A DNA stretch of 64,000 nucleotides from a virus: positions 1-64,000 of IMG/VR virus record IMGVR_UViG_3300033233_000006; one strand, written 5' to 3'. This document shows positions 95 through 60,735 of the stretch, in pieces. Numbering within the stretch: the first letter of the stretch is position 1; the number at the start of each line of letters is the position of its first letter. The notes below the pieces were generated by a model. It was not told the origin of the DNA. It saw only the letters and a list, made by a program, of their open reading frames with translations, and did no database searches. The translations under genes were made by a program, and so were the position numbers.

Positions 95-328
95 TCACAC
101 TAGCTCCGCCAGCCGCTCGACCGCGTCGAGCACGCGCAACTCGTCGTCGAAGTACGACCGGGACGATCGCGCCTCATCGTCGAGGGTGACCGTCACGAGG
201 TGCTCGTCGAGGATCACGACGACGCTGCCACGCTGACCGTAGTGAAGCGAGACCCGTAGCTCGGAACTGATGCTGACGACCTCGACGCGGTCGCCCACCG
301 CGACCAGATTCGACTTCGAGCCCTTCAC
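95..328 (-). CDS. Small KOW/SH3-like protein with C-terminal tag
   Basis: VAVGDRVEVV near N-term; ends LDAVERLAELV; GTG overlaps upstream stop. Confidence 0.75.
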   Translation of the reverse strand: MKGSKSNLVAVGDRVEVVSISSELRVSLHYGQRGSVVVILDEHLVTVTLDDEARSSRSYFDDELRVLDAVERLAELV

Positions 329-507
329 GCCAGCTCGCCCAGCAGCTCGACGGGGTCTACGACTCGGAACCAGCACGAGAGCACTGCGAGGATCGTCCCG
401 TCGGCCAGCTCGATCGTCCAACGCTCCCCGTCGCAGGCCGTGACGATGCCGCGGTCTCCGTACCGCAGGAAGCCCTCTCCGGTGATCTCGACGGTCGAGC
501 CGATCAT
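325..507 (-). CDS. Small SH3-like protein with C-terminal tag
   Basis: MIGSTVEI...VDPVELLGELA. Confidence 0.75.
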   Translation of the reverse strand: MIGSTVEITGEGFLRYGDRGIVTACDGERWTIELADGTILAVLSCWFRVVDPVELLGELA

Positions 508-743
508 GGTTGCTGTTCTACCTCGTCCAGCGACGCGAGAAGCTCGACGACATCGTCCGTCGGCCACACGTTCCTGCGGTCGCACGGCGTGTAGCAGCTG
601 CCCCACCTCGGATCGTTCAGCTGGACGTGGATGGAACCACCCGCGCTTACGAACCGGAAGGTTCCGCGCATCCCGCCCGCGACCTCGATCGGGGTCTTGT
701 AGGGGAGCTTCTCCCACTCCTCGATCGTCAAGAAGCGCGTCAC
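504..743 (-). CDS. Small protein with C-terminal tag
   Basis: GGAGG RBS before GTG; ends DDVVELLASLDEVEQQP. Confidence 0.65.
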   Translation of the reverse strand: MTRFLTIEEWEKLPYKTPIEVAGGMRGTFRFVSAGGSIHVQLNDPRWGSCYTPCDRRNVWPTDDVVELLASLDEVEQQP

Positions 744-1457
744 ACCGACCTCCTGCTTCGAGCCGCTTGCTCGACTCGGCCACGGTCGCTGTTCTACCTC
801 GACCAGTCGGATCAGGCTCCCACGACGACTCGCGGCGGCATCGGTGCTGACAACTTCAGGATCTTGTCTATCCCCGCCAAGTCCGATCAACTTCAGCGAT
901 GCGCACTCTCCAGTGAAGTGATGCGCATCTTTGGAAATTCCGGCATCTTCACCAACCATGTGTGTGGTCGATCTCTCCTGTGTGCGGGTGAGCGGGGCGA
1001 GCGGGGTGAGGTGATGAGGAAAGAGGAGGCTGTCTGAGTGATCCAGGCCGGGACAGGAAACGCGGTCAAGCAGCGCTTCCGAGACGTGTCGGTGTCCGAG
1101 GCATCCTGGGAGGGACATCGGGGCCAGAAGACTTAGGAGGATTGCTTGGGGGAGGGGCGGACATGCGTGGACAAGTGATGCGCAATTCTCAGAGAGGTCA
1201 GGTCTTGGAAGGTAGCACGGTGAGACATGACCAGAGCTAAGTGCTGCCCTCTCCGAGATGGGCATCACTAAAAGGAGCGGATAAGGCCCTTTGCGCGAGA
1301 GCCGATACCAAAGATCACCCGGAACCACCGTGTCCTAGCGGGCTCCGGCGCCTGATTTTAGAACACTTCCCCGATCCGAACTCTAAGCGACTGGTTGGGG
1401 CTTCTCGGAGATGATCTGCGCGGCGCACCTCCGCTCGCCGACGGCTGTCCTAGCGGG

Positions 1458-1898
1458 CTACGGAGCCCGCCCTTCGCCCGGCGGATGTGTGATGGGGATC
1501 GGACGCTTGTGGGGGCAGATCCCACCGCCTACGCGTTTTCCCCAATTGCAGTTCTGGCAGAGGACGCCGAAGCCGTCGGGGTAACCGGTTGTCCTGAGCC
1601 AGAAGTAGAAGCCAGTGCCGCCCCGACGAAGCAACCTGCGCTGTTTGTTTCCGCCGCCAGTGAGGTGGTCAACTACGAGAAACTCGACTGTCGACTCTGA
1701 ACAGCATGAGCACTTGGGTGGCGAACCGCCGTAGTGTGCGAGCACTTCGAGCCGCAACTTGACGCGGGTCTTGGCGCAGAGCCGCCCGGCATAGGTCGGG
1801 TCGGCATCACGACGTGCTTGGGCTTTTTCGGCGCCACACGCCTTGCACCGATAGCGCGGGGGGAGTTTTTCTACACCGTGCTTCGCGCAGACCGCCAT
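1458..1898 (-). CDS. HNH-like Zn-binding endonuclease
   Basis: CSCC...VDH..GGG...GFGVLCQNCN; paralogous to 51034..51693. Confidence 0.75.
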   Translation of the reverse strand: MAVCAKHGVEKLPPRYRCKACGAEKAQARRDADPTYAGRLCAKTRVKLRLEVLAHYGGSPPKCSCCSESTVEFLVVDHLTGGGNKQRRLLRRGGTGFYFWLRTTGYPDGFGVLCQNCNWGKRVGGGICPHKRPIPITHPPGEGRAP

Positions 1899-2180
1899 CG
1901 CCTACACGCTAATGGCACCAAGCAGAGATGTCAACAACGACTCATCGTGAGTGGCGTGGTGAGACATCTAAGGCTCACCGTGCGACATAAGATGACCGCT
2001 CCAGGCTATCGGCGTCTCACGCTGCGACATCGAGATGGCCTGCGGCGGCGATCGCCGATGGCAACTACTCCGACCAGGAGAGGCCGCGCTTGGTCGTCTT
2101 ACTTGCCGTTGAGGTGGGGCCCCAGCCGAGAGGCGAAGCCTGTCCTAGCGCCGGAGGCGCGGGAACAGACTTCGTCTGTC

Positions 2181-3185: not shown

Positions 3186-3584
3186 TCAACTGGTGATTGG
3201 CGGCGCCTCCTCGGCGAGCCGCCAGACCATTACGCCAGTCGCCGCCGCCTCGACGAAGTTACAGATCCTCTTGCAGTCGAAGCAGACGATCTCCTCGGTG
3301 CCGACTCGGTCGAGGTCTTCGTGCTTGCACTCCGTCTCGTGATCCTCACGTTCGATGCTCGCCAGTGCGTCAACCACGTCGAGTCGACGAAGGTCGTTCT
3401 TGTAGAGCGTCCAGTCGGAGGTGATGTAGCGGTCCAGCCTTACACGAACTGCGTAGGCGTTGTTCTCGCACAACCCGATCACGGTGCCGGAGAAGCCTGG
3501 TCCGGGCCACGGGTAGTCACCACGCTCGATCACGACTCGATCGCCGACTCGGAACTCAGGTGTGGGGTCGATGACTTCGATCAC
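3186..3584 (-). CDS. KOW/SH3-like protein with tag and Cys-containing extension
   Basis: EFRVGDRVVI...LDVVDALASIE then CxH/CxxC tail. Confidence 0.75.
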   Translation of the reverse strand: MIEVIDPTPEFRVGDRVVIERGDYPWPGPGFSGTVIGLCENNAYAVRVRLDRYITSDWTLYKNDLRRLDVVDALASIEREDHETECKHEDLDRVGTEEIVCFDCKRICNFVEAAATGVMVWRLAEEAPPITS

Positions 3585-3943
3585 TACTCCACCTCCGCCA
3601 GTCCCCCGAGCAGGTCGACCGGGCTCGGGTGGGTGACCAGCTTCGTGACGCGCTCCCAGTCTTCCTGCTGGTTGAACACCCAGCGCAGGAGAGGCATGAG
3701 GCGGACGAGCTGTTCGATCTCCGTGCCCGCCAGTCGCACAACGAACCTGTCAGTAACGACTTGGCTGTCGTTGAGGAGCGCTCGCTTCAACGACCAGAAC
3801 TTGTTCCGACCAGAGACGGCGCTCGACACTCGGTCGTGGGCTTCGGCAGACATCGACAGCGACAGCAGTGACGGCCCCAGCCACCTCGGCTCGAACTCAC
3901 ATGGCTGTCGATGCTCGTTCACGCGATGCCCGCCCCAGCGCAC
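3584..3943 (-). CDS. Hypothetical protein with C-terminal tag
   Basis: Ends SPVDLLGGLAEVE; start uncertain. Confidence 0.65.
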   Translation of the reverse strand: MRWGGHRVNEHRQPCEFEPRWLGPSLLSLSMSAEAHDRVSSAVSGRNKFWSLKRALLNDSQVVTDRFVVRLAGTEIEQLVRLMPLLRWVFNQQEDWERVTKLVTHPSPVDLLGGLAEVE

Positions 3944-5146: not shown

Positions 5147-5551
5147 TCACGACGACTCGTCGAGTGCAGCGATCGAGTCGACCAGCGGGAGCTTCGCCGT
5201 GAGCCCGACTCGGAGAATGCTCCAGAGTTCCTCGGCGTGCTGGGGCGTGTACATCGCCAGGTAGCGAGTTCCCTCGACAGCGACGTGGAGAGCTTCGCGG
5301 AGGTCGGCGATCACAAGACGGCGCTTGGTTTCCGGGTCGTGCTTGCCGTCCTTCAGGTGGCCTTCAGCTCGGTCCACCGAGATGCCGAGCGACCAATCGA
5401 AGCGATGGAGGCCGTCCCGTTGGCTGATCTTCGCCCGAGCAGCGACGTAGCCGTGGGCACCCCGGAAGATCGAGATGACGAAGGCGAGGAGGTCGGCCTT
5501 GTTGACCTCGAAGTTCCGCTCCAACAAGACTTCGAGTTCGCGAGGGTTCAC
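5147..5551 (-). CDS. Hypothetical protein with C-terminal tag
   Basis: Ends PLVDSIAALDESS; GGTAGAAC 6 nt upstream of GTG. Confidence 0.7.
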   Translation of the reverse strand: MNPRELEVLLERNFEVNKADLLAFVISIFRGAHGYVAARAKISQRDGLHRFDWSLGISVDRAEGHLKDGKHDPETKRRLVIADLREALHVAVEGTRYLAMYTPQHAEELWSILRVGLTAKLPLVDSIAALDESS

Positions 5552-7912: not shown

Positions 7913-8137
7913 TCAACCGCCGAGCGAGCCCAAGATGTCCACGAGGCTCATGGGTTCGAGCCGGTCGGCCCCGAACCGGCGCACGGCCCTGAGTCCGTCG
8001 ATGTGGATCAGGTAGGTCGAGCCGGCGATCTTGACGACTGTGCCCTCGGTCGGCAGCTTCGCGCGGAACGCGCCCTCGCGGAGCACGCCCTCCTCTTGGG
8101 TGGGCATGACCCGAACTCGTGCTCCTTCGCCGATCAC
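7913..8137 (-). CDS. KOW/SH3-like protein with C-terminal tag
   Basis: MIGEGARVRV...SLVDILGSLGG. Confidence 0.75.
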   Translation of the reverse strand: MIGEGARVRVMPTQEEGVLREGAFRAKLPTEGTVVKIAGSTYLIHIDGLRAVRRFGADRLEPMSLVDILGSLGG

Positions 8138-11167: not shown

Positions 11168-11236
11168 TCGGTCACCTCCGCTTCGCTGACACTTGAGCTT
11201 CGACGAGTTGCAGCCATCCGGTGCATCTGTGATCCG

Positions 11237-19822: not shown

Positions 19823-20038
19823 TCACTCCAACTCCGCGAGCCACTCGACCGCAGAGAGCGGCTCCATCCGCGAGCTTTCGCGGTAGGTCCACGTTCCGTC
19901 GGGGGAACTCTTGTTCCAGTCGCCGTCGATCAAGACGAAGAGGCCACCGCCGGGGAGCATCCGAACGATCGTGCCGAGGTCGAACTTCTTCCCGCCGAAG
20001 TGCCACACGCGAATGCGATCACCCTCGTGAAGCTCCAT
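19823..20038 (-). CDS. KOW/SH3-like protein with C-terminal tag
   Basis: LHEGDRIRV...LSAVEWLAELE. Confidence 0.8.
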   Translation of the reverse strand: MELHEGDRIRVWHFGGKKFDLGTIVRMLPGGGLFVLIDGDWNKSSPDGTWTYRESSRMEPLSAVEWLAELE

Positions 20039-20047: not shown

Positions 20048-20266
20048 CTACCCTGCGGAGCGGGGTGCGACCCTTCGGGTCTCTATCCCGCGCTTCACCT
20101 CGGCGAGCGCCCGACGACGGGCGAACCCGAGATGCGTCTTCTCGACCCAGTCCCGTCCCTGGCAGGCCCGGCAGAGGAAGCGGGCCTTGAAGCGGAGGTC
20201 GCGTCGGAAGGGCGAACCGATCCGGCGTCGTCCGCATCGGGCGCAACGGCCAACCTGGTAGCTCAT
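20048..20266 (-). CDS. Small basic Zn-finger protein
   Basis: CARC...CRAC; coupled to upstream stop. Confidence 0.55.
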   Translation of the reverse strand: MSYQVGRCARCGRRRIGSPFRRDLRFKARFLCRACQGRDWVEKTHLGFARRRALAEVKRGIETRRVAPRSAG

Positions 20267-20460
20267 GCCAGCGCTCCGAGCAGCTCGATCGGGTCGTAAT
20301 GGCGAAGCTCGTAGTCGTTGAACCAGGAGTCCCTCGTATCGCCCTCGAAGCGGACGGTGACCCTGCCGCCGTGCTGGTAGTGGACGACGCCGATCTGTTC
20401 GAGCCGTGCCACGCCGAGGAAGATGACGATGACTCGGTCGCCGGGCTGGAAGCCGTTCAT
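20263..20460 (-). CDS. KOW/SH3-like protein with C-terminal tag
   Basis: FQPGDRVIV...YDPIELLGALA. Confidence 0.8.
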   Translation of the reverse strand: MNGFQPGDRVIVIFLGVARLEQIGVVHYQHGGRVTVRFEGDTRDSWFNDYELRHYDPIELLGALA

Positions 20461-20726
20461 GCGAGTTCCGCCAGAAGTTCGACGGGGTCGAGCAGCCGGA
20501 CGGACCTCTCCGGGACGCGGATCTCCCGGTCGTTGGCGTCGAGTCGGACGAGGAGCTTCAAGCCCTCGTCGATGACGATGCCGACGCCCGTGACGGTGCC
20601 CCGCAGATTGGGGAGGCCGCACTCCCCGCTCGCGTCTCCCTTCGCGTCCATGCACGCGACCAGGACGAGCTGCTTTCCCTTCGGATGGAGCGGGCAGAGG
20701 AGCTGGACGCGGTCGCCGATCTTCAT
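20457..20726 (-). CDS. KOW/SH3-like protein with C-terminal tag
   Basis: MKIGDRVQL...LDPVELLAELA. Confidence 0.8.
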   Translation of the reverse strand: MKIGDRVQLLCPLHPKGKQLVLVACMDAKGDASGECGLPNLRGTVTGVGIVIDEGLKLLVRLDANDREIRVPERSVRLLDPVELLAELA

Positions 20727-20968
20727 GCCAGCTCCGCCAGTAGCTCGATCACCGACACGGCTTCGAGCGTCTGGGGCGGATAGCCGGCGAGGAAGCCTCC
20801 GGCGTTGCTCCTCGGGAAGTAATCCCAGAGGACGTAGACGTAGGGCGTCCCGTCCCGGTCACGGACGAAACTGCCGGGCGACTCGTGGACGGTGCCGAAC
20901 ACGATTGACGCCTCTCGCTCGCCCCCTTTGGGGACGTAGCGAACGCGCGTTCCAGGCTCGAAATTCAT
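20723..20968 (-). CDS. KOW/SH3-like protein with C-terminal tag
   Basis: FEPGTRVRY...VSVIELLAELA. Confidence 0.8.
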   Translation of the reverse strand: MNFEPGTRVRYVPKGGEREASIVFGTVHESPGSFVRDRDGTPYVYVLWDYFPRSNAGGFLAGYPPQTLEAVSVIELLAELA

Positions 20969-21028: not shown

Positions 21029-21273
21029 TGGATAAAGTCCTCCCCGAGACCGGGAAAACCCTGAAGCCGCATCGGCTCCCCGCCGCCGAGCTGGGTGAGC
21101 CGGCTCAGCGCGTAGACGGCCCCTTCTCGAACCAAGGCGGTTGACGGCACGAGCATCGAGCCGAGCTGGCGGCTGGCTCCGCAGAAGATGCACGGATCGT
21201 CGAGGCCCATCTCGACGCGGTTGAAGGCGTGCCTCTCCGACTGGCAGACCCAGTAGAACTCCCGCTCGCTCAT
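21025..21273 (-). CDS. Small Zn-ribbon protein
   Basis: WVCQSERHAF...CIFCG. Confidence 0.65.
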   Translation of the reverse strand: MSEREFYWVCQSERHAFNRVEMGLDDPCIFCGASRQLGSMLVPSTALVREGAVYALSRLTQLGGGEPMRLQGFPGLGEDFIQ

Positions 21274-21512
21274 GCCAGCTCCGCCAGCCGATCGACGACG
21301 GAGAGCGGCTCAAGCTGCCGTTCGAGCATGATCGAGGACCGGCGTTCCTCGCCGTCGTCGAAGGCATAGTCGTCCGCGTCCCACTCGACAATGACACCGT
21401 GCGGGCCACGCTCTCCGCGCTTCAAGTCGATGACCGTGCCGATGAATGGCCGCACGCCCGGATCGGGCTCGTAGCGGACACGGTCTCCCTTGGCGAACTT
21501 CATCGGCTTCAT
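21270..21512 (-). CDS. KOW/SH3-like protein with C-terminal tag
   Basis: FAKGDRVRY...LSVVDRLAELA. Confidence 0.8.
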   Translation of the reverse strand: MKPMKFAKGDRVRYEPDPGVRPFIGTVIDLKRGERGPHGVIVEWDADDYAFDDGEERRSSIMLERQLEPLSVVDRLAELA

Positions 21513-21730
21513 GCCAACTCCGCCAAGCGCTCGACCACATCGAGAGCGCGGATCTCGTAGATGGTGAGGACTGTCTCCGGGCGGAACTCCGTCTTTGTCT
21601 GCTCGACGAGGAGTCGGATGCGCCTGCCATCGGTGGCAAGAATCCTACCGGCACAGCCAGTCCACTGTCGGTTCCACTCCGAGCGAGGCGCAACGATGCG
21701 CACGCGGTCGCCCTGCTTGAATGCGCTCAC
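21509..21730 (-). CDS. KOW/SH3-like protein with C-terminal tag
   Basis: FKQGDRVRI...LDVVERLAELA. Confidence 0.8.
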   Translation of the reverse strand: MSAFKQGDRVRIVAPRSEWNRQWTGCAGRILATDGRRIRLLVEQTKTEFRPETVLTIYEIRALDVVERLAELA

Positions 21731-21981
21731 GGCGTCTTGATCGACGCGATCTGGTCGACCACCGGGACGAGGCGCTGCAAGTACTCGATGAACATCGGCA
21801 GCTCCTCGACCATGATGTAGAAGCAGCCGCTCCCGCCCGTGTCCTGGTGGAGCGAGACGTAGGGCTCGTGTCGCGGCTCCGGGTCGTTCTCGGCGATGCC
21901 GTCGTCCAGCCGCCGGCAGAGCCGGGCCGTCGCCTTCTCGCGGTCCGGTCCCAATTTCCCGAGGTACATCGGTTCGCTCAC
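21727..21981 (-). CDS. Hypothetical protein with C-terminal tag
   Basis: Ends PVVDQIASIKTP. Confidence 0.7.
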   Translation of the reverse strand: MSEPMYLGKLGPDREKATARLCRRLDDGIAENDPEPRHEPYVSLHQDTGGSGCFYIMVEELPMFIEYLQRLVPVVDQIASIKTP

Positions 21982-22120: not shown

Positions 22121-22378
22121 TCACCGACCAAGCTCCGCGATCTGCTCGATCACGTCGCCCCGGGAGTTCTCCAGGTGCTTGACGAGGTCGTCGCAGGCCA
22201 TCGCCGCGCTCTCCAGAGCGTTCAGGACGTACTCGATGCAGTGCTGGCGTTCGCGCACGTCCTTGATCTTGCGGATGAGCTTCTTGGCCTTCTTGGAGTA
22301 GTCGTAGACCTCGTCTTGGATCTCCTCGGCGAGCCGAATGTCCTCGTCAGTAACGACACGCCGGACCTTCTTGCCCAC
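22121..22378 (-). CDS. Helical protein with C-terminal tag
   Basis: TGCAAC motif at 22400-22425; ends GDVIEQIAELGR. Confidence 0.7.
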   Translation of the reverse strand: MGKKVRRVVTDEDIRLAEEIQDEVYDYSKKAKKLIRKIKDVRERQHCIEYVLNALESAAMACDDLVKHLENSRGDVIEQIAELGR

Positions 22379-22425: not shown

Positions 22426-22758
22426 TCAGGCCAGCTCTGCGAGAAGCTCGGGGGCCGTAAGTGGCCGCATCGCCTCCTCGTAGAAGACCCTTGGCCGCTT
22501 CTCTTCGTCGAGCCGGACGACGCATACGGGTCCGCGGGCAACCTTGAGCGGGTCCGTCGTGACCGCCGAGAGCAGCATCATGCCCGTCTCGCAGCACGTC
22601 TGGCACGATGTACGGTTGCCATTGAGGCGGGATTCGGCGGTGATGATGTCGGTCCGGTGGCCCTTTCCGGCGCACGAGAGGCAGCGGACCGTGTCGGCGT
22701 AGGTGACCACGCCTTTCTCTCCCGAGCGCATCCGAATGCGCGTGCCGACCTCAAGCAT
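22426..22758 (-). CDS. KOW-like protein with CxxCxGxG Zn insert and C-terminal tag
   Basis: LEVGTRIRM; CLSCAGKG..CQTCCETG; LTAPELLAELA. Confidence 0.75.
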   Translation of the reverse strand: MLEVGTRIRMRSGEKGVVTYADTVRCLSCAGKGHRTDIITAESRLNGNRTSCQTCCETGMMLLSAVTTDPLKVARGPVCVVRLDEEKRPRVFYEEAMRPLTAPELLAELA

Positions 22759-23317: not shown

Positions 23318-23527
23318 GTGACCCAACCGCTCGACGACGATGCCGAGTCTTTTCCGACCAACGGGCTCACGCCGCGAGGCGTTCATCAGGCCGACCAGAT
23401 CATCGCCGCCGCGAAAGACATCGCCAACCAGGCGCTCAAGGGAAACCGTAACCCGGACGAGGCCACAGTCGAAATCTTGGAGAAGCTCCTCGAACTCCGT
23501 GACGTGGATCGGAAGCCCGAGCCGTGA
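23318..23527 (+). CDS. Hypothetical protein
   Basis: GGTAGAAC 6 nt before GTG; first gene of the rightward run. Confidence 0.65.
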
Positions 23528-39665: not shown

Positions 39666-39965
39666 ATGGGCTCGTCGCGCAAGCCGAGGCCGCATCGTAC
39701 CGAAGGTGAGGTCCGGCTCGGCCCGACGCTCGTCGCGCTAGAGTCGAAGGACAACGAGTGGTGTCACCTATGTGGACAGCGCTCGACCGGGATCTTCGTC
39801 GAGGTTTGGCTCCCCAAGAACGCTGAACACGACCGCCGGAACTCAGCCGGAGCCCTCGATCGTAGCTACCTGCGGATGTGCGCGGACTGCGCGACGGCGA
39901 TCGGCGGAGCCGGCGTCTCGGTCGTCGACAGGTTGGCCGCCCTGGACGACAGGCCGCCCAGGTAG
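39666..39965 (+). CDS. Zn-finger protein with C-terminal tag
   Basis: CHLC...CADC; SVVDRLAALDD. Confidence 0.7.
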   Translation: MGSSRKPRPHRTEGEVRLGPTLVALESKDNEWCHLCGQRSTGIFVEVWLPKNAEHDRRNSAGALDRSYLRMCADCATAIGGAGVSVVDRLAALDDRPPR

Positions 39966-44297: not shown

Positions 44298-44518
44298 GCG
44301 CGACCGACGATGTCTTCATCCCGTGCGATGCGGAACACGGCTGGTGCCAGTGCGGCGAGTGGCACGAGAACCCCGAGAAGGAGAAGCGGCGCCTCGGGTC
44401 GAAGGAGCACGGGCTCACCCTGTGGTCGATAGACAGCGGGCTCTCCTACGACGCGAACCCCCGAGAGAAGCTCCGAGGAGAGGCGATCAAGCGCGGCGCC
44501 CACCGAGTCGACAAGTGA
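44294..44518 (+). CDS. Hypothetical protein
   Basis: GTGA coupling; CQCGEWH. Confidence 0.6.
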   Translation: MSATDDVFIPCDAEHGWCQCGEWHENPEKEKRRLGSKEHGLTLWSIDSGLSYDANPREKLRGEAIKRGAHRVDK

Positions 44519-44733
44519 CCCTCGCCGTTGGCGACATCGTCGTCATCGCCGTCCGCGCGGGCGTCCCTCAGACCTTCTACCGTGGTCCGACAGGGCGGGG
44601 CACGGTCACGAAAGGCGACGACCGCCACGGCTTCGTCTACGTCGACTTCCGCGACGACGGGGCCCCGATCTACATCGATGCGCGCGAGCTGCGCCTCGTG
44701 AGCGCGCCCGAACTGCTGGTCGACCTCGCCTAG
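44515..44733 (+). CDS. KOW/SH3-like protein with C-terminal tag
   Basis: LAVGDIVVI...VSAPELLVDLA. Confidence 0.75.
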   Translation: MTLAVGDIVVIAVRAGVPQTFYRGPTGRGTVTKGDDRHGFVYVDFRDDGAPIYIDARELRLVSAPELLVDLA

Positions 44734-53808: not shown

Positions 53809-54150
53809 ATGCGAGGCTTCGTCCACTACCTCGTCACCGGTGGCGTTCCGCTCGTCGTCCTGTTCATGGCGCTCTGGCTCATTCTCTACTTCTTCCGGCT
53901 CTCTCGTCCACCAGGGCCCCCGCCTTTCAAGCCGGGTGAAGAGGTCGAGTACAGGCGCGAGACGCCGCTCACCGACGAGGAGGCGCGCTGCCCGGTCCAC
54001 GTCGTCGGGTGCGAGTGGAGCGCGCGGAAGGGCGAGTGGGAGGTTCGACTCGCCTTCACGTTTGCCAAGGACTCGACCTGGGAGGCGACGGCGCCCGCCT
54101 CCCGCGTCCACCACCTCGACATCGTGCGAAGACTGGCCGAACTGGCATGA
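53809..54150 (+). CDS. Membrane-anchored KOW-like protein with C-terminal tag
   Basis: N-terminal TM helix; FKPGEEVEY; LDIVRRLAELA. Confidence 0.75.
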   Translation: MRGFVHYLVTGGVPLVVLFMALWLILYFFRLSRPPGPPPFKPGEEVEYRRETPLTDEEARCPVHVVGCEWSARKGEWEVRLAFTFAKDSTWEATAPASRVHHLDIVRRLAELA

Positions 54151-54413
54151 CCCCGCCCTTCGCTTCCGGCGACCGCGTCGAGGTCACGGAGTTCCACGGC
54201 GGCTCGATCGAGCAGGAGCCGTGGCACGAGCGGTTCAAGTGCCCGGTACGCGGCTTCGTCGACGATACGGAGTGGTGCCAGGAAGATGACAACTGGCTCA
54301 TCTACGTGGTCGTCGACGGCCACCCAGGATTCGGAGTCACCTACCCCGAGCGCGCCAGGCTCATCTCCGCACCAGAACACCTCGCCGAGTTGAACGATGC
54401 GCCTCCCGCCTGA
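54147..54413 (+). CDS. KOW/SH3-like protein with C-terminal tag
   Basis: FASGDRVEV...ISAPEHLAELND. Confidence 0.8.
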   Translation: MTPPFASGDRVEVTEFHGGSIEQEPWHERFKCPVRGFVDDTEWCQEDDNWLIYVVVDGHPGFGVTYPERARLISAPEHLAELNDAPPA

Positions 54414-54891
54414 GTCGGAATGGCCCGAATGGAAGCGTGGCGATCGCGCCATCATCGGCGTCATGCGCACCAGACCGCCCGACGGCGTGAGGCGTAGTCC
54501 GAGCGAGACGGTCTACATCCGCGGGACGGTGACGAGCGTCGTGATCGACCTCGGGTGGGGCGGAGCGTGGCGCATCTTCATCCACACCGATGACGGGGAG
54601 ATCGAGAGCTGCTCCCCAGAGAACCTACGCCGGCCCGACGTGATCGAGCTGATCGGAGAGATCCCATGCACTCCAAGACACCGCCCTTCGAGATCGGCGA
54701 CCGCATCCGCCACGGAGAGCGAACCTACGCCCCGGCTAAGAAAGGGTGGCAGCGGGTCTACCCAGGCAGCGTCACCGCGTGCTACTGGAATGACGAAGAC
54801 TCGGACACCGGCTGGTGGGTTACGGCGAAGCTCGACGAAGGTCGAGAGGTCCACGGCACGGCGGGCGAGTTCGAGAAGGTCGTCGACGTGA
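54397..54891 (+). CDS. KOW/SH3-like protein with tag; ORF runs on into the next gene
   Basis: WKRGDRAII...PDVIELIGEIP; 3' extension doubtful. Confidence 0.6.
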   Translation: MRLPPESEWPEWKRGDRAIIGVMRTRPPDGVRRSPSETVYIRGTVTSVVIDLGWGGAWRIFIHTDDGEIESCSPENLRRPDVIELIGEIPCTPRHRPSRSATASATESEPTPRLRKGGSGSTQAASPRATGMTKTRTPAGGLRRSSTKVERSTARRASSRRSST

Positions 54892-54962
54892 TCGAGGCGT
54901 TGGCGGATCTCTACAAGGAGAAGCCGCTGCGTTTCCTGCCCCGAGGTAGAACGGAGACATGA
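54666..54962 (+). CDS. KOW/SH3-like protein with tag
   Basis: FEIGDRIRH...VDVIEALADLY. Confidence 0.8.
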   Translation: MHSKTPPFEIGDRIRHGERTYAPAKKGWQRVYPGSVTACYWNDEDSDTGWWVTAKLDEGREVHGTAGEFEKVVDVIEALADLYKEKPLRFLPRGRTET

Positions 54963-55306: not shown

Positions 55307-55552
55307 ATGCGCGACGCCGATGGCCGCTACTACAAGGTGCTCGATCGCGTCGTGGTCGAGCCGGCGTGGCACGACGGCTCCAGCATCGGAACGACCCACC
55401 TGGTCGGGCGGCCTACGCGCGGCACGCTCATGGAGACGGAGGGGCCCTCTCGGTTCCGCATCCGACTCGACAACGGCCCGATCATCTACGCGATGCCGGA
55501 GTACGTCCGGCACCTCGACGCGATCGAGGCGGTTTCCGAGGCTGACCGATGA
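55307..55552 (+). CDS. KOW/SH3-like protein with tag
   Basis: YKVLDRVVV...LDAIEAVSEADR. Confidence 0.75.
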   Translation: MRDADGRYYKVLDRVVVEPAWHDGSSIGTTHLVGRPTRGTLMETEGPSRFRIRLDNGPIIYAMPEYVRHLDAIEAVSEADR

Positions 55553-55806
55553 GCGAGAAGCCACTGCCGTGCCCCTTCGCCGCTTATGCGCTGGTCAAGG
55601 TGCCCGAATGGGCACGTCCTCTGTACGTCGGGGTTGTCATGGGCACTGAGTCTCGACTCGCGCCCACACCGGCGGGGGCTCGCCCAGACGGCGCCTGGAC
55701 CTGGTTCATCACGATCGACTTCGGGAAGGGAAGAGGCGTTGGCGTTTTTGAGATGCGACACGTCAAACACGTCGACCCGATCTCGGCGCTGGCGCTCATC
55801 CGATGA
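55549..55806 (+). CDS. SH3-like protein with tag
   Basis: Ends VDPISALALIR. Confidence 0.7.
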   Translation: MSEKPLPCPFAAYALVKVPEWARPLYVGVVMGTESRLAPTPAGARPDGAWTWFITIDFGKGRGVGVFEMRHVKHVDPISALALIR

Positions 55807-56051
55807 GCGCCGAGGCGAAGGTCGGCGACTGCGTGCGCGTGGTGCGTCCGCACTCTGAGGGCGTGGACAAGTACATCGGCACGGTCGAGGACATCCGCAA
55901 GTACGGCCAATTCCTCCGTTACTACATCCGCCTTCGGAGCGGGAAGCTCCTCAATCTCGACTCGCGGGTCATCAAGCAGCTCGACATCGTGACGGGCTTG
56001 GCGATGCTCGACCCGGAGTTCCAGCCCGACTCGGAGAACGAGAAGCCGTGA
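55803..56051 (+). CDS. KOW/SH3-like protein with tag
   Basis: KVGDCVRV...LDIVTGLAMLD. Confidence 0.75.
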   Translation: MSAEAKVGDCVRVVRPHSEGVDKYIGTVEDIRKYGQFLRYYIRLRSGKLLNLDSRVIKQLDIVTGLAMLDPEFQPDSENEKP

Positions 56052-56281
56052 GCGGCTTCGAGCGCGGGCAGCGCGTGATCGTTCAGCCAGACAAGAACCT
56101 CGAAGTGGTGCGCGCTGAGGGAGTGGAGATCCGGCTCCCGGCGTTCGGTACCATCGCCCAAGAAGACCCGTGGGGTTATGCGATCGTCCTCGTAGACGGG
56201 CTCACCGAACCGAAGTCGTTCCCGGCCTGGCGCTGCACGCCGCGGAACGTCATCGACGAGATCGGGATGCTCGATAAGTAG
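56048..56281 (+). CDS. KOW/SH3-like protein with tag
   Basis: FERGQRVIV...NVIDEIGMLDK. Confidence 0.75.
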   Translation: MSGFERGQRVIVQPDKNLEVVRAEGVEIRLPAFGTIAQEDPWGYAIVLVDGLTEPKSFPAWRCTPRNVIDEIGMLDK

Positions 56282-56342: not shown

Positions 56343-56360
56343 CGAGGGCGAGGTGACGGC

Positions 56361-56780
56361 GTGGGCATATTCGAGAAGGCGACCAAGTCGAAGCTGACCA
56401 AGAACGGGCGCAAGCTGTCACTCACCTTCACGCAGCTCGTCGGACTGCGCGCGGCGATCCCACACGCGTTCGAGCTGGGCGGTCTCCAGCCGGAGATCGC
56501 TGCGCAGCTTGTTGCTCTTCGGGCGTGGCTCCCCAAGCCACCGATCCCGCACCCGACCACGGACGAAGGCACGATCACGGCGTGGCGAAGCGAGTGGCAA
56601 GGGACGCACCACCTCACGGTGCCGGGCGAGCACCTGACCGCGCTCGCGTTCGCGCTCAAGTTCGCCTTCTGGCTCGCCACGCAGGGGCTCATCGTCGGCC
56701 AGCCGATCGTCTACCAGCGTCGGATCGAGGCGATCGAGAAGCTCGGCGCCGTCGATCTTCTTGCGATCGCGGAGGGCTAG
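56361..56780 (+). CDS. Hypothetical protein with tag
   Basis: Ends LGAVDLLAIAEG. Confidence 0.7.
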   Translation: MGIFEKATKSKLTKNGRKLSLTFTQLVGLRAAIPHAFELGGLQPEIAAQLVALRAWLPKPPIPHPTTDEGTITAWRSEWQGTHHLTVPGEHLTALAFALKFAFWLATQGLIVGQPIVYQRRIEAIEKLGAVDLLAIAEG

Positions 56781-56782: not shown

Positions 56783-57157
56783 ATGTCTGTCGACTTCGTC
56801 TTCACGATCCCGTTGAGGTACCACGCCGAGGCGGTCGCGGTCTCCAAAGCCGCCGCCTTCGCGGAGGCGTCAGCCGCGGCGGACCGCGTCCTCAGCGCGA
56901 TCGAGCGCGGAACGAAGATCACCGCACTCTACCCGTCCCTTACGCCGCACGATGCGATCGAAGTCCGCGTGGGGCTCGACGACATCTCGGCGCTCAAGGC
57001 GATCCTCGATGCGAACCACTCGCACAGCTTTCCCGTCGTTTCTCCCGACACCGACGAGGTCCAGCTCGACTGGGAGGACTGGAGCTGGCACACGATGCAC
57101 TTGCTCTACTCGTTCGAGCGCGAGTCGGTCGTCGATCATCTCGGGAAGATCCAGTGA
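56783..57157 (+). CDS. Hypothetical protein with tag
   Basis: Ends ESVVDHLGKIQ. Confidence 0.7.
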   Translation: MSVDFVFTIPLRYHAEAVAVSKAAAFAEASAAADRVLSAIERGTKITALYPSLTPHDAIEVRVGLDDISALKAILDANHSHSFPVVSPDTDEVQLDWEDWSWHTMHLLYSFERESVVDHLGKIQ

Positions 57158-57537
57158 GCCTTCCCGCGTTTCAGCTCACGTCCCCCGCGCCGCGCGATCT
57201 CTACGAGGTGATGACCTGCGCCGAGCAGATCCTCTGGGACACCAGGAACGAGAAGATGCGACCCGACAGCAACCGCGAGTCGCTCCAGCGGATCGTTGCC
57301 GTGATCAAGACGGACCCCGACTACGGTCGTGGGTGCATCCCCAGCCGATCGCCTGTGCTCGAAATCGCGCACGAAGATGTCCGCACTCTGCGCTTCGTCT
57401 TCCTCGTCCTCCACACCGAGCTGGCGATCAAGGAGGAAGTGACCATCCGCTACGAGGAGTGGCTCGAAGTGACGATGGAGACCCTCGCCAAGATCGGCGA
57501 CACCTCGATCGTCGAGCACATCGGACGAATCCTGTGA
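57154..57537 (+). CDS. Hypothetical protein with tag
   Basis: MSLPAF...TSIVEHIGRIL. Confidence 0.7.
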   Translation: MSLPAFQLTSPAPRDLYEVMTCAEQILWDTRNEKMRPDSNRESLQRIVAVIKTDPDYGRGCIPSRSPVLEIAHEDVRTLRFVFLVLHTELAIKEEVTIRYEEWLEVTMETLAKIGDTSIVEHIGRIL

Positions 57538-57896
57538 GCCTACCCGCGTTCAAGTTCTACGTTCACGCCGGCATCTTCACAGGCTTCGTGGAGGGCCTTC
57601 GCGTTCACAGCCTGAAGACCAACGGCATGCCCGAACCGCCGTTCGTCTGCGATCGGCCCGCCATCAAGGCGATCGACGAGATGGCGGCGCTCAACGCCCA
57701 CCGGCTCCAGCTTCACTGGACGATTCCCTACGACCTGCTCGACGCTCTCATGGACGTGCTCGCGTGGTGGATGGCGAACACGAAAGCCGGCGCGTTGACC
57801 GACGCGGACGAGTTCGCGTTCGACCTCCTCGAATCGGCCCGGGAGTGGCGGCGTCGGTCGATCGTCGATCACATCAGCGAGATCCGGCATGAGTAA
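57534..57896 (+). CDS. Hypothetical protein with tag
   Basis: MSLPAF...RSIVDHISEIRHE. Confidence 0.7.
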   Translation: MSLPAFKFYVHAGIFTGFVEGLRVHSLKTNGMPEPPFVCDRPAIKAIDEMAALNAHRLQLHWTIPYDLLDALMDVLAWWMANTKAGALTDADEFAFDLLESAREWRRRSIVDHISEIRHE

Positions 57897-58290
57897 AGAC
57901 CGACTCGGACCCCCGGTTCGTGTCGAGATCGCAGCCGGCGAGTGGCAGGTCTTCATGCTCGGCCTCTCGTGGGCGATCCGTCGCAGCTACGTCGATCACG
58001 TTACGCTCGGCTACTCGGCGCTTGTCGAGGAGGCGCTTCTCGCGGCGAGCAAGAAGCGGCGGACGCGCGACAAGACGCCCGCCGTGCTCGAATTGCCGAG
58101 GTCGACGCTCGACTGGACTGGCGAGGCGCTCATCCGGGCCAGTCGCGACGCGAAGGCCAAGGTCAACTACTTCAATGGTCGCACGACTAAGGAACGGCGA
58201 GCGTTCATGCGGAACGCCGGGAAGACGATCGAGCGTCTCAAGGCGGAGAACAAGAAGACGGTCATCGACCTCATCGGAGACCTCGGGTAG
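57889..58290 (+). CDS. Hypothetical protein with tag
   Basis: Ends KTVIDLIGDLG. Confidence 0.7.
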   Translation: MSKDRLGPPVRVEIAAGEWQVFMLGLSWAIRRSYVDHVTLGYSALVEEALLAASKKRRTRDKTPAVLELPRSTLDWTGEALIRASRDAKAKVNYFNGRTTKERRAFMRNAGKTIERLKAENKKTVIDLIGDLG

Positions 58291-58308
58291 AACGGAGAGG
58301 GCTTATCC

Positions 58309-58677
58309 GTGTGGTATCCGAATCGAGATCCGAGCCGCGACCCAGACCTCGGCAAGCTCCACTACGGCGTGCTCGTCGACGAAGACTGGTCGTGGACGAC
58401 GCGCCAACCGCAGAAGGGCGAGCAGCGGCCTTACTCACGCGCGCTCAAGCGTGTGATCGGCAAGAACCCGGAGCTGCTCTCCAGTCTTTTCCGAGCGCTC
58501 GCTACCGGCGACGTGACGAGCATTCGTGTGGCCCAGGATGCGATCGCAGACGCCGTCCTGAGCAAGCGCTCAACGTGGTTCCGCAGCGACCGCGGAGCGC
58601 GTCAGAAGATCGACGCCCGGATTCGCGACCTCGCGCTCGCCGACCCGATGACCGTTCTGGCGACGCTCCACGAGTAG
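58309..58677 (+). CDS. Hypothetical protein with tag
   Basis: Ends ADPMTVLATLHE. Confidence 0.7.
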   Translation: MWYPNRDPSRDPDLGKLHYGVLVDEDWSWTTRQPQKGEQRPYSRALKRVIGKNPELLSSLFRALATGDVTSIRVAQDAIADAVLSKRSTWFRSDRGARQKIDARIRDLALADPMTVLATLHE

Positions 58678-58683: not shown

Positions 58684-59034
58684 GTGAGGGAGATGAGGAA
58701 CATCGGCACTGACAACATCGTCGAGTTCGTGCGCGGGATGCTCAATCGCCCGATGATGTACTGTCAGTCGACCGAGTCGCTGGAGATGGCGCTCCTCACC
58801 GCCATGACCTGCTGGGCCTACGCCAGCGGAGCTGACTCGGACGAACGCGTCAGGAATCTGTGGCGTCGCGAGATCCACCGACTCCATGGCAACACCGGCT
58901 CGCGCGCAGTAACGCTCTCCGATCTTCCCACTTGTGGCAAGGCGATGCACATGGACGCTGTGACCGTGCCGATGCGCCGCATCTGGCTCGCGCTCACGGA
59001 GCCGATCACTGCTATCGGAAACGTCGAGCTATGA
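58684..59034 (+). CDS. Hypothetical protein with tag-like end
   Basis: Ends TEPITAIGNVEL. Confidence 0.65.
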   Translation: MREMRNIGTDNIVEFVRGMLNRPMMYCQSTESLEMALLTAMTCWAYASGADSDERVRNLWRREIHRLHGNTGSRAVTLSDLPTCGKAMHMDAVTVPMRRIWLALTEPITAIGNVEL

Positions 59035-59209
59035 AGATCCTGCGGTGTATGGTCTGCCACCACGAGCACCCGCTCGAAGACGCGCCCGAGCGCTGCCTGT
59101 GCGGTGCTAAGCTCTACGGGAAGTGGGCTCGGGCTACCGAGCGCGTCATGGTGGCCGCGCGGGCTCGTGGCGCTGAAATCAGGTCTCAGATCAACGTGCG
59201 AGAGCAGAC

Positions 59210-59599
59210 ATGAGCGTCGACGCCGACTCCATCAAGCAGAAGTGGGGTGTGCTCGCCGGTTCGCTCGACTCGAACGCGGCGGCGCTCATGGAGAGATTCG
59301 TTCGTGGGGAGACGGAGCTGCTCGAACGGCTTGAGGCAAAGGGCTCCAAGATCCCGGCGTGGGTGATGGCGGCGCACAGGCCGATCAACCCACCGCACAC
59401 ACCGCTCATCTCGGTTCAACCCATGTCGGCGCCGGTCGGCGGCATCGCGTTCTACAGGCCGCGATACGGGTCGGAGCCCGAGTGCATCATCGACGCGCTC
59501 GCCACGCTCGACTCGAAGAAGCCGGTCGAGAACCCCTACAAGCGCAAGCGCAGAGGGGGCGAGATCGCGCCGGGTCGCGAGGGTATGAAGACGGTCTGA
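59210..59599 (+). CDS. Truncated major-capsid paralogue with tag
   Basis: ISVQPMSAPVGGIAFYRPRY vs MCP SSVQPMTGPIGGVAFYRPRY; then CIIDALATLD. Confidence 0.8.
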   Translation: MSVDADSIKQKWGVLAGSLDSNAAALMERFVRGETELLERLEAKGSKIPAWVMAAHRPINPPHTPLISVQPMSAPVGGIAFYRPRYGSEPECIIDALATLDSKKPVENPYKRKRRGGEIAPGREGMKTV

Positions 59600-59880
59600 T
59601 GGCGAAGTCTGGTCCGAGCCAGGAAGATGATGCTCGCCTCGCCGCCGAGCGGGAGAAGGTCGCCTGCCGCTACTGCGGCGGCAAGCCTATTCACTTCCCA
59701 CCGCCGGGACGCCCTCAATCGGATGCTGTCTGCGAGGACTGCTCGCATCGCGCGCCGTGGATGTCGGTCGTCGAATCCGTCGTCCAGTTGGCGCACCCGG
59801 AACCGAAGGCTGTCGACATCCGAGTCGACGGTGTCAAGTACCGGCCCACGACCGATTTCTCCAAGGAGAACTTCACTTGA
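59599..59880 (+). CDS. Zn-finger protein with tag-like motif
   Basis: CRYC...CEDC; SVVESVVQLA. Confidence 0.65.
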   Translation: MAKSGPSQEDDARLAAEREKVACRYCGGKPIHFPPPGRPQSDAVCEDCSHRAPWMSVVESVVQLAHPEPKAVDIRVDGVKYRPTTDFSKENFT

Positions 59881-60230
59881 CCCCGAACAGGCCGGCGTTC
59901 GCCGCGTGCATGGTCGCCTACACGGCGGTCGATGTGCTGGCGAACCTTCGGCTCAAGGTCTGGCTCGCCGATGGAAGCTGGATAGCGTTCGCGCAGGGCA
60001 TGTTCTTCTACGTCGGATGCGGCGCGCTGTGGGCGCTGAGCCTCAAGTTCGAGAGCTTCGCCAAAGCAGCGCTCGTCTACACGCTGATTGCCCTCGCGGC
60101 GGGCGTCATCCTCGGCGTATTCTTCTTCAAGGAGAAGCTGTCGACGTTGAACTGGGTGGGCGTGGGCGTCGCGCTCATCGCCATCATCCTCGTCGAGTGG
60201 CCCAGCAACCAGGGAGTGAACGAACAGTGA
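59877..60230 (+). CDS. Small 4-TM DMT/SMR/EamA-like membrane protein
   Basis: GVILGVFFFKEKLSTLNWVGVGVALIAIIL. Confidence 0.75.
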   Translation: MTPNRPAFAACMVAYTAVDVLANLRLKVWLADGSWIAFAQGMFFYVGCGALWALSLKFESFAKAALVYTLIALAAGVILGVFFFKEKLSTLNWVGVGVALIAIILVEWPSNQGVNEQ

Positions 60231-60508
60231 GCGAAGACAACGAGATGCCGAACGGCGAGATCCCCCACCGCACCGACGAGCGCGAGTGGCGCCCAGGAGA
60301 ACTTGCCGAGGTGAAGACGCGCGGCGCGGGTCCGGGCCAGCGCGTCAAGATCCTCTCGGCGTGGTGGGGCAAGGACACCGGTCACCGCGTCTGCAAGGTC
60401 ATCGACGAGTCGACCGGCAAGGAGTACGTCGTCTTCGGCGACGTGCTCAAGCCGCTCGATGCGGTCACGGCGGTCGGCGGCGCGGCTTCGACCACCCAGC
60501 AGCGGTGA
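60227..60508 (+). CDS. KOW/SH3-like protein with tag
   Basis: WRPGELAEV...LDAVTAVGGAA. Confidence 0.7.
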   Translation: MSEDNEMPNGEIPHRTDEREWRPGELAEVKTRGAGPGQRVKILSAWWGKDTGHRVCKVIDESTGKEYVVFGDVLKPLDAVTAVGGAASTTQQR

Positions 60509-60735
60509 ACCGGGTCTACGAGTTCGCGGTAGGAGAACGTGTCAGGTGGGAGTATCCGCCCGGCGAGTTCGGCGTGGTCACGAAGCTCGGCCCGCCGAAC
60601 GGCATCTTCGGGAACTACGGAGTCCTCGTGAAGTGGGACGACAGGAAAGACCCGGCGTGGCATGACGATCTCGACCTCGTTTCGGCACCAGTCGTCGACC
60701 TCCTCGCCTCCATCCATGCGCACCATCGGCACTGA
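60505..60735 (+). CDS. KOW/SH3-like protein with tag
   Basis: FAVGERVRW...PVVDLLASIH. Confidence 0.75.
   Translation: MNRVYEFAVGERVRWEYPPGEFGVVTKLGPPNGIFGNYGVLVKWDDRKDPAWHDDLDLVSAPVVDLLASIHAHHRH

Follow-up and report, generated by a model that had tools for sequence, protein, structure and literature searches.

About one third of the proteins encoded in the window (the 64,000-nucleotide stretch analysed here, the first 64 kb of a 131,251-bp record), otherwise unrelated, share the same short terminal helix. This motif, an N-capped amphipathic helix of 9-10 residues, follows the pattern cap D/S, small residue or Pro, V/I/L, acidic, x, L, A/G, x, L/I. Judged from sequence, it appears to be a portable protein module of a clade of uncultured giant phages with high G+C. 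It is most readily, if tentatively, understood as a shared docking helix, a short linear interaction motif with one common partner.

The phage itself is an uncultured giant T4-like phage of 65% G+C, from a high-G+C giant phage clade with a T4-type head; its head module encodes a T4-type portal, a Gp23-type capsid protein and an S77 prohead protease bearing a long extension. Genes were called by a self-trained codon log-odds model with dynamic programming, giving 190 genes in the record and 114 within the window. C-termini are set solely by frame and stop codon, and are thus independent of start-codon choice. The motif is present in five related records, with tagged proteins numbering 84/427, 35/224 and 35/254 in three of them by de novo PWM and 66/286 and 3/143 in two further ones by regular expression. 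Sliding-clamp-binding C-terminal peptides were also considered, a reading that would call for a phage-encoded clamp and clamp-dependent polymerase. A complete relative carries family A polymerase, not family B; PF00136 (family B polymerase) was absent from four records and matched in 6/14 control genomes, and PF02916 (sliding clamp) had no match in three records, nor in the controls.

The preliminary description had claimed about 43 small proteins ending in a common motif. Its consensus, written as the strict expression [DS][PVAI][VI][ED].[LI][AG].[LI], matches 17/114 window proteins within their last 16 residues, and a loose expression matches 36/114 there. Mean matches over 500 whole-protein shuffles were 0.00 (strict) and 0.26 (loose), over 500 tail-only shuffles 0.00 and 0.50, and uncalled stop-to-stop frames of at least 40 aa gave 0/770 and 1/770; the enrichment at C-termini is therefore real. 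Per position, the strict motif occurs at a rate of 0.0186 in tails versus 0.00020 internally. The same motif is recovered by a de novo search, BLOSUM-seeded on tails with no typed seeds, in which 35/186 record proteins exceed the 99.5% shuffle threshold and 0.9 are expected. Once copies lying 13-55 residues from the end are included (3186-3584, 54666-54962, 55803-56051, 59210-59599 and 59599-59880), the window holds about 40-44 copies, a tally that agrees with the claimed number. The gene clusters had also been named correctly, tagged over total genes per 10-kb bin being 7/18, 1/22, 14/23, 1/8, 1/13, 8/22 and 1/15; only two tagged genes of the record lie beyond the window. Structural genes lack the motif, as had been claimed, and the replication module lacks it too, the tagged genes forming accessory arrays outside the head module. 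The distance from core to C-terminus is 0-9 residues in 35/35 scored copies of the record, with a spread that differs per genome, and in 17/35 a single residue, mostly Ala, follows the core.

Tagged genes on the minus strand (gene coordinates, then motif nucleotides) encode a 77-aa barrel protein (95..328, DAVERLAEL at 101-127, one residue before the stop), a 60-aa barrel protein (325..507, 331-357) and a 79-aa protein (504..743, 528-554, seven residues before the stop). They are followed by a 132-aa protein in which a barrel precedes an internal motif and a 55-residue Cys-rich extension (3186..3584, 3354-3380), non-barrel proteins of 81 aa (3584..3829, 3599-3625) and 134 aa (5147..5551, 5162-5188), and a 64-aa protein (7913..8107, 7922-7948). 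Further along lie genes for a 61-aa protein (19823..20008, 19829-19855), for barrel proteins of 65 aa (20263..20460, 20269-20295), 89 aa (20457..20726, 20463-20489), 81 aa (20723..20968, 20729-20755), 80 aa (21270..21512, 21276-21302) and 73 aa (21509..21730, 21515-21541), for a non-barrel protein of 84 aa (21727..21981, 21739-21765), for an 85-aa protein modelled as all-alpha (22121..22378, 22130-22156) and for a 110-aa protein with CxxC pairs (22426..22758, 22432-22458).

On the plus strand, barrel proteins of 67 aa (23524..23727, 23695-23721) and 74 aa (23724..23948, 23904-23930, five residues before the stop) precede a 100-aa protein (24108..24410, 24378-24404), a 114-aa protein with CxxC pairs (24407..24751, 24719-24745) and a 113-aa barrel protein (24748..25089, 25048-25074). 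A 99-aa protein with CxxC pairs (39666..39965, 39918-39944, six residues before the stop) and a 72-aa barrel protein (44515..44733, 44701-44727) come next, and then a 113-aa protein with a hydrophobic N-terminal segment (53809..54150, 54118-54144); the TM helix and Zn fingers described previously can be read in the sequence as this TM-like N-terminus and the CxxC pairs. Barrel proteins of 88 aa (54147..54413, 54366-54392), 98 aa (54666..54962, 54885-54911, 16 residues before the stop), 81 aa (55307..55552, weak motif at 55517-55543), 82 aa (55803..56051, 55983-56009, 13 residues before the stop) and 77 aa (56048..56281, 56246-56272) are found here, as is an 85-aa protein with a weak motif (55549..55806, 55774-55800). 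Non-barrel proteins follow, of 139 aa (56361..56780, 56745-56771), 124 aa (56783..57157, 57125-57151), 127 aa (57154..57537, 57505-57531), 120 aa (57534..57896, 57858-57884) and 133 aa (57889..58290, 58258-58284). Weak motifs end proteins of 122 aa (58309..58677, 58642-58668), 113 aa (58693..59034, 58999-59025) and 93 aa (60227..60508, 60458-60484). A protein of 129 aa that duplicates a 31-residue segment of the major capsid protein carries the motif at about 59483-59509, followed by 28 residues (59210..59599), and a 76-aa barrel protein carries it six residues before the stop (60505..60735, 60688-60714).

In roughly half of the window cases the helix is predicted to cap a small SH3-like barrel. 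The AF2 model of the 80-aa protein at 21270..21512, built on a 30-sequence alignment with one common architecture over four genomes, has a mean pLDDT of 85.5; strands 11-14, 23-31, 39-44, 59-63 and 67-69 form a five-stranded small beta-barrel, and helix 72-79, the motif, comes directly after the last strand. The last block, terminal helix included, is of fair confidence (AF2 pLDDT 77). This model supports the SH3-like bodies of the preliminary description, whose estimate of over half beginning with F-x-x-G-D-R-V holds approximately: 18 barrels of the record are detected by a barrel HMM from which the tag columns had been removed, and by eye more proteins look like barrels. All 18 carry the motif. 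Among tagged proteins the HMM matches 14/35 in the record, 13/84 in relative G001, 4/35 in G002 and 4/35 in G003. PMC5906684 states that a C-terminal helix often caps chromo-like SH3-fold barrels and that bacterial proteins contain 2-14 such small barrels in tandem. Rare metagenomic proteins hold 2-11 barrel-helix units in tandem per chain, keeping barrel and helix as one unit, and each helix leads into a basic linker; recurring between barrels, the helix thus also works as an internal inter-domain element.

Barrel proteins join the helix to the last strand without a linker, and this, together with the motif on every barrel and its recurrence in tandem, means that in the barrel class the helix may act in part, or entirely, as a structural cap; a purely structural role suffices for about half of cases. 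Extended to all carriers, such a role would make the motif no more than the C-terminal helix that caps one hyper-diverged small-barrel family, lineage-specific and massively expanded, with no common partner. The tag would then be only apparent, the barrels having diverged past sequence recognition, and non-barrel carriers would either be unrecognised relatives or have gained the helix through recombination at the 3' ends of genes. Phages commonly encode small SH3-like ORFans, judging from weak BFVD matches only, which agrees with this account, a possible though rather doubtful one. Against it stand the other bodies, which bear out the portability claimed earlier: the all-alpha predicted model of 22121..22378, RNase H and a phage Zn-binding domain found by Pfam among 80 tagged G001 proteins, and the capsid-protein fragment at 59210..59599. 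The last had also been reported before, and its segment matches residues 107-137 of the major capsid protein (BLASTP E 2e-11), with the motif directly following; orthologues in two relatives retain the internal motif.

Comparison between genomes also weighs against a mere cap. The tagged window proteins gave no BLASTP match at 1e-5 in three relatives, to which the structural proteins match at 25-81%; bodies turn over almost completely between genomes while the motif is kept across the clade. Homologous tagged pairs have higher identity in the motif than in the body, 0.80 versus 0.52 between G001 and G002 (16/16 pairs) and 0.64 versus 0.35 between G001 and G005 (17/22 pairs), and a helix lying on very different barrel surfaces should not outlast the barrel core in conservation. 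The motif ends an RNase H-like protein in G001, the G003 orthologue of which ends otherwise, so the motif is gained or lost on orthologous bodies. Two proteins have orthologues in which about 45-100 residues come after the motif, making it internal, so a free C-terminus is not required.

The motif also comes in lineage flavours: [DS]-[VP]-V-[ED]-x-L-[AG]-E-L in the record, S-A-[VI]-[DE]-x-L-[GA]-x-L in G001, G002 and G005, and x-V-L-D-x-L-A-x-I in G003. Per-position chi-square p between lineages falls to 1e-26, and differences within the close pair G001/G002 are far smaller (lowest p at any position 4e-3). A concerted shift across all paralogues of a lineage is not expected of a structural cap. 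Synonymous sites of the motif copies show no homogenisation, and together these features are better accounted for by one co-evolving reader than by gene conversion or by structural constraints acting independently. Birth-and-death evolution from few founders per lineage could also give a lineage-specific flavour.

It is improbable that the helix serves instead as a turnover or processing signal, read by a protease as a degron timing the removal of accessory proteins or as a site of cleavage or maturation; in the fused metagenomic forms it would then mark polyprotein cut points. In those tandem proteins conservation is far higher in the helix and basic linker than in the barrels, a pattern also seen at polyprotein junctions, and the phage encodes its own extended S77 prohead protease. 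Many copies contain Leu-x-Glu (Glu at position 8 in 16/34 scored copies of the record), which resembles the T4 prohead protease rule, and the single residue, mostly Ala, past the core in nearly half of the record copies would suit the same idea. However, position 8 is variable, with Glu in 25/84 copies in G001 and 5/~31 in G003; the variable trailing residues and internal copies misfit degrons that need a fixed C-terminus, and the tagged genes lie outside the head module.

Selection on the motif acts at the protein level. Codon-position information, computed on 37 (record) and 58 (G001) aligned copies, lies in positions 1 and 2, third positions being near the body background of 0.49; for the invariant Leu of G001 the IC is 2.00/2.00/0.49, with codons CTG 27, CTC 24, CTT 5 and CTA 2, and the cap alternates between D and S via codons at least two bases apart. 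Of the 17 copies that have a single residue after the core, six read GCATGA over the last codon and stop; the overlapping start thus has some influence on which residue comes last. That the motif is an RBS/ATGA coupling signal or a small-gene recombination cassette with the peptide as by-product is very improbable and already largely refuted, and a translational-coupling element is rejected, for although these GCATGA ends and the 4-nt overlap with the next start in 19/36 tagged window genes speak for it, tags are as common at uncoupled as at coupled ends (16 versus 18 in the record, 22 versus 11 in G003), SD-like words are no commoner in tagged than in untagged coupled ends, third positions are unconstrained, conservative exchanges dominate (D/S, V/I, E/D, A/G, L/I) and the stop distance varies.

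Searches for known families returned little. A Pfam scan of 39 window proteins had no match at E < 0.005, and a scan of the 80 tagged G001 proteins found only RNase_H/RVT_3 and Phage_zn_bind_8, in one member each; PHROGs gave only four families, each with a single member and none at an E better than 8e-4. Foldseek of the barrel model against PDB had no match at E <= 0.001, the best being assorted SH3-like folds at E ~7e-3 and TM 0.5-0.63 (nitrile hydratase beta SH3-like domain, R67 DHFR, chromo-barrel, CAP-Gly, NusG, Tudor), and the BFVD structure search was likewise weak. Weak profile matches to KOW proteins cover barrel positions 4-60 only, and the PDB sequence search had no match covering the helix. 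No Pfam, PHROG, PDB or named relative of the tagged family was found in these searches.

The modelled five-strand barrel followed by a short helix resembles chromo-like, Sul7d-like, KOW and Tudor-like small barrels. Unlike curated families of these, it reaches no Pfam cut-off, and the phage helix is also found on non-barrel bodies. HK97-fold shells take up cargo by peptides such as the T4 capsid targeting sequence, the HK97 protease C-terminal tail and encapsulin targeting peptides, and the motif is similar in being a short portable peptide on unrelated proteins; the context is similar too, with T4-type head genes and one tagged protein holding a capsid-protein segment. The T4 sequence, however, sits at the N-terminus and is cut off by the prohead protease, whereas in all scored copies of the record 0-9 residues separate the motif from the C-terminus, and the tagged proteins, for whose source a DNA run is the sole dataset found, are encoded in accessory arrays outside the head module. 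A fixed-end degron or PDZ ligand was also considered and rejected: ssrA-like degrons and PDZ ligands need a fixed free C-terminus, and the motif has 0-9 trailing residues and, in orthologues, internal copies.

Two further systems offer partial likenesses. Repeated conserved elements border small fast-turnover accessory genes in T4-type hyperplastic regions also, where the mobile regulatory cassettes are intergenic DNA with promoter and stem-loop; the phage motif, in contrast, lies inside coding sequence and is conserved as amino acids, not nucleotides. Poxvirus ankyrin proteins join variable target-binding bodies to a constant C-terminal F-box-like PRANC docking motif. The tagged proteins may follow an analogous logic, with many paralogues, variable bodies and a constant C-terminal element, although PRANC serves the eukaryotic ubiquitin system and is unrelated in sequence and fold.

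The existence of the motif, its selection as protein, its varied bodies, its conservation in the clade and its concerted lineage shifts are direct observations, from which we infer binding to one partner. A single common partner would read the docking helix and co-evolve with each phage lineage; candidates are a protein of phage or host origin, a protease, the interior of the capsid and fellow members of the family. The fast-evolving bodies, mostly small SH3-like barrels with helical, Zn-ribbon, RNase H and other forms besides, would be the variable part of the system.

The preliminary description of this DNA had claimed that about 43 small proteins share one C-terminal tag, an amphipathic helix of roughly 10 residues. 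Genes were called with a self-trained codon model because spurious ORFs are abundant at such a G+C content (~65% along the whole sequence), giving 190 genes in the 131,251-bp record (IMG/VR virus; CheckV completeness 46%) and 114 in the window, which covers its first 64 kb. The shared tag is borne out. The strict motif, i.e. the consensus regex of that description, lies within the last 16 residues of 17/114 window proteins and its loose, relaxed form in 36/114, against means of 0.00 and 0.26, respectively, in whole-protein shuffles and of 0.00 and 0.50 in tail-only shuffles. Uncalled frames match in 0 of 770 (strict) and 1 of 770 (loose) cases, and the record beyond the window contributes 0 of 75 proteins (strict) and 1 of 75 (loose). 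A de novo search with seeds from the data only recovers the same motif. Once motifs slightly farther from the end are included, the window total comes to ~40-44 copies, in line with the number first given, and the clusters first listed correspond to accessory gene arrays, with the structural and tRNA regions nearly free of tags.

The phage carries a T4-type head module, with an intein-interrupted portal gene (26622-30011, + strand; Intein_splicing E 3.6e-25), an S77 prohead protease with a long extension (32303-34093, + strand) and a Gp23-type capsid protein (34108-35559). No close cultured phage is found by megablast and, among the matches listed, every deposited phage has a capsid protein with <32% identity to the present one. 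Genes for HNH homing endonucleases flank the module, ahead of the portal gene (25778-26518, + strand) and after the capsid gene (35710-36771, + strand), and the tRNA region (51690-53297) holds further HNH genes. The S77 domain occupies only the first ~170 residues of the 596-aa protein, and likewise of the S77 proteins of two related records, which are 943 aa (G001, 191916-194747) and 940 aa (G003, 8920-11742). There is no separate scaffold gene between the protease and capsid genes, so the long S77 protein may be a protease-scaffold fusion. The tagged proteins of the window are also recorded on a 254,565-bp contig, which points to a more complete assembly of the same or a near-identical phage in a public collection. 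No RNA sequencing runs carrying the phage are listed, and the sole DNA run is possibly the source sample.

Searching IMG/VR with the capsid protein gave 28 related loci of 59-84% identity. These capsid-centred loci show 3 tail matches versus 0 in reversed DNA and, together with the shuffles and the uncalled frames, exclude chance or a gene-calling artefact. Five of the 28 records were taken whole, with genes called as for the present record. By the de novo PWM, for which the same tails served both for training and for scoring, tagged proteins number 35/186 in the present record (131 kb; 0.9 expected), 84/427 in G001 (complete, 275,101 bp with terminal repeats; capsid 80%; 2.1 expected), 35/224 in G002 (160 kb) and 35/254 in G003 (204 kb, 58% G+C; capsid 69%). 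By regex, the independent kind of count, they number 66/286 in G005 (120 kb) and 3/143 in G004, which is mostly a structural fragment. The tagged share of called proteins is thus 14-23% in five of the six records and 2% in G004. Within G001 the tagged genes occupy the 90-180 kb accessory region, where they make up as many as 14 of the 29 genes in a 10-kb stretch, and stay out of the replication and virion modules. The motif comes in a flavour particular to each lineage: [DS]-[VP]-V-[ED]-x-L-[AG]-E-L in the present record, S-A-[VI]-[DE]-x-L-[GA]-x-L in G001, G002 and G005, and x-V-L-D-x-L-A-x-I, often at the exact C-terminus, in G003. Lineage differences per position reach p values down to 1e-26; those between G001 and G002 are far smaller (smallest p 4e-3).

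The bodies of the tagged proteins, i.e. the parts other than the tag, are far less constant. With the motif removed, a single window pair (21270-21512 with 60505-60735) links at BLASTP 1e-3, and HMM iteration on the tag-free window bodies finds nothing beyond this pair. Tagged window proteins have no 1e-5 match in G001, G002 or G003; for head and tail proteins, the same comparison gives matches of 25-81%. Among homologous tagged pairs, identity between G001 and G002 is 0.80 in the motif versus 0.52 in the body, with the motif higher in 16 of 16; between G001 and G005 it is 0.64 versus 0.35, with the motif higher in 17 of 22. A Zn-ribbon protein encoded outside the window stops shortly past the motif, and its orthologues in G001 and G002 keep the motif and continue for ~100 more residues. 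The capsid-fragment protein retains an internal motif across three genomes, and an RNase H-like protein has the motif in G001 and lacks it in its G003 orthologue. These orthologue alignments indicate that the motif is portable, can sit internally, and appears or disappears while the body is conserved. Pfam searches of 80 tagged proteins of G001 gave one RNase H and one phage Zn-binding domain, and the others had no match.

The motif is portable across folds, is conserved above the level of the bodies, persists where it is internal, comes and goes among orthologues, and shifts in concert lineage-wide without synonymous-site homogenisation; all of these properties point to shared external selection. 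The tag could be a helix docking into one common binding partner external to the individual proteins, and selection by such a partner is our tentative preference. Its pattern would suit a helix lying in a groove: there is an N-cap with an acidic residue at N3, positions 3, 6 and 9 are hydrophobic, and position 7 has to be small. A fuller version, in which a fast-evolving library of binders is brought by the constant helix to a single lineage-specific hub, as a docking system without a described phage counterpart, is possible but rather unlikely. It would follow a logic like that of F-box-type adaptor families in large eukaryotic viruses. A protease or unfoldase could act as the hub, as could the interior of the capsid or a scaffold for assembly. 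No partner was found: a Pfam scan of 30 further proteins gave only enzymes, homing endonucleases and replication proteins. The replication module of the relatives includes a DnaB-like helicase, a primase, a MoxR-type AAA protein, a CobT/VWA protein, a family A polymerase with a putative intein, a MerR-type regulator and a RecA-like protein, and family B polymerase is absent from the records searched. The intein-domain match of the G001 family A polymerase is sub-threshold (31.9 bits versus a cut-off of 35.8). For a clamp as hub, there was no gp45 family match, and the controls were equally silent.

The main rival is that the helix serves as the structural cap in a barrel family that has diverged extremely, and that recombination carried it to other genes; we consider this doubtful, though well worth weighing. 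AlphaFold2 (AF2), given a 30-sequence alignment spanning four genomes, predicts for 21270-21512 a five-strand SH3-like barrel plus a helix at residues 72-79 (mean pLDDT 85.5), and the last strand runs into the helix without a linker, as would befit a cap. An HMM of the barrel without the tag columns detects 18 barrels in the record, 18/18 of them tagged, four with the tag 2-55 residues from the end, which also favours the cap. According to PMC5906684, SH3-fold barrels often carry a C-terminal helix. No barrel is detectable in 21/35 tagged proteins here and 71/84 in G001, at the limited sensitivity of the HMM, some HMM-negative tagged proteins being barrel-like by eye. An all-alpha body of one long helix is predicted for 22121-22378 (AF2 without alignment, pTM 0.51). 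Fold and profile searches of the barrel give weak generic SH3/KOW/Tudor-like matches, none covering the helix. The ESM Atlas returns only SH3-like neighbours for 21270-21512 (DUF1918, DUF4926, DsrB) and no neighbour for 57154-57537. The barrel-class fold is already known; the family is absent from Pfam, PHROGs and the PDB.

Fused tandem forms in metagenomes also speak for a cap. The barrel+helix profile, run against 1.84 billion representatives, gives 1908 matches at E <=0.001, the best being eukaryotic tandem Tudor/SH3 repeat proteins aligned over the barrel only. A few metagenomic proteins repeat the whole unit: barrel, helix of the type [ST]-P-[LI]-E-E-L-A-x-L-G, and a basic linker ending in Asn-Pro. 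Tag-like sites number 11 in P0002 (795 aa), 6 in P0009, 5 in P0013 and 2 in P0055, and P0019, P0025, P0028 and P0043 have a similar tandem appearance. As in the phage arrays, the barrels of these proteins diverge, and helix and linker are constant. No viral or metagenome contig matches P0002. When close tags were used in a word-indexed search, only 13 single-unit relatives came up, 7 of which are the query proteins themselves. Two tandem proteins, P0154 and, judged by eye only, P0106, have an extra N-terminal region; P0154 is precomputed as Pfam family PF03942, which we take to be the DTW domain.

A signal read by a protease, as degron or cleavage site, is improbable. Short portable peptides common to many proteins include capsid targeting sequences, encapsulin cargo peptides and the viral F-box-like adaptor families. 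For capsid targeting sequences, clamp-binding peptides and C-terminal degrons, no tested defining feature was established for the tag, which we class as a short motif or targeting-type peptide common to members of a new barrel family. The preliminary remark that no described phage family like it was known agrees with the lack of any known family in Pfam, PHROGs or PDB sequences and of any description of such a motif among the papers listed by full-text literature searching.

That a nucleic-acid-level element lies behind the conserved gene ends is scarcely credible, since aligned motif copies hold information at codon positions 1 and 2, the third being near the background of the same genes, so that the purely nucleotide-level conservation raised beforehand as an objection is not found. 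The invariant Leu uses four codons, and the cap residue alternates between Asp and Ser via unrelated codons. RBS/ATGA coupling is likewise rejected on the codon-position information and on a comparison of gene ends: uncoupled ends carry the motif as often as those that run into a following start, and the motif shows no enrichment of SD-like words. The overlapping ATG visibly shapes only the very last residue: of the 17 copies that have a single trailing residue, 6 end in Ala written as GCA directly ahead of TGA. Conservation of the tag acts on protein, not DNA.

GGTAGAAS has 23 window sites versus 1.4 expected, is oriented with local transcription at nearly every site, and lies ~0-35 nt upstream of gene starts, including several tagged-array starts. 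Examples are 791-798, 5558-5565, 20045-20052 and 23266-23273 on the minus strand and 23304-23311, 39640-39647, 53795-53802, 56336-56343 and 58286-58293 on the plus strand. Probably it acts as a -10-like promoter element; transcripts may in some cases be leaderless. TGCAAC, followed by TCC, ~12-14 bases and GTGT, precedes almost every small high-GC3 gene at 9365-19083 (minus strand) and recurs at 22420 and 56307; it looks like a second promoter class, distinct from that at the tagged arrays. At 46-53 kb, TGCAAC falls within the T-arms of tRNAs. The minus-strand tagged array opens with an untagged gene (22974-23234, minus strand) whose product has a Cys-rich end that presumably resembles a SEC-C-type metal-binding motif and is shared by a 215-aa protein of G001. 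Genes at 3950-5071, 5871-7862 and 11237-12028 (minus strand) and 43288-43986 (plus strand) encode two NUDIX proteins, a 663-aa 2'-5' RNA ligase/LigT-like protein and a calcineurin-like phosphoesterase; this gene content suggests that, besides the large tRNA set, the accessory genes provide for the metabolism of nucleotides or RNA ends.

Most accessory genes in giant phages are ORFans that offer no handle for study. Here one short, lineage-specific motif marks 14-23% of proteins in five of six records and is their best-conserved part, a very large effect conserved across the clade. A single peptide could therefore retrieve a partner relevant to dozens of uncharacterised genes. Should a hub exist, phage host-takeover or virion-cargo proteins would be organised by a new principle, and engineering would gain a portable tag. 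Should the helix be no more than a fold element, the family would still be the largest lineage-specific small-barrel expansion seen in these data, one that includes a few fused tandem forms.
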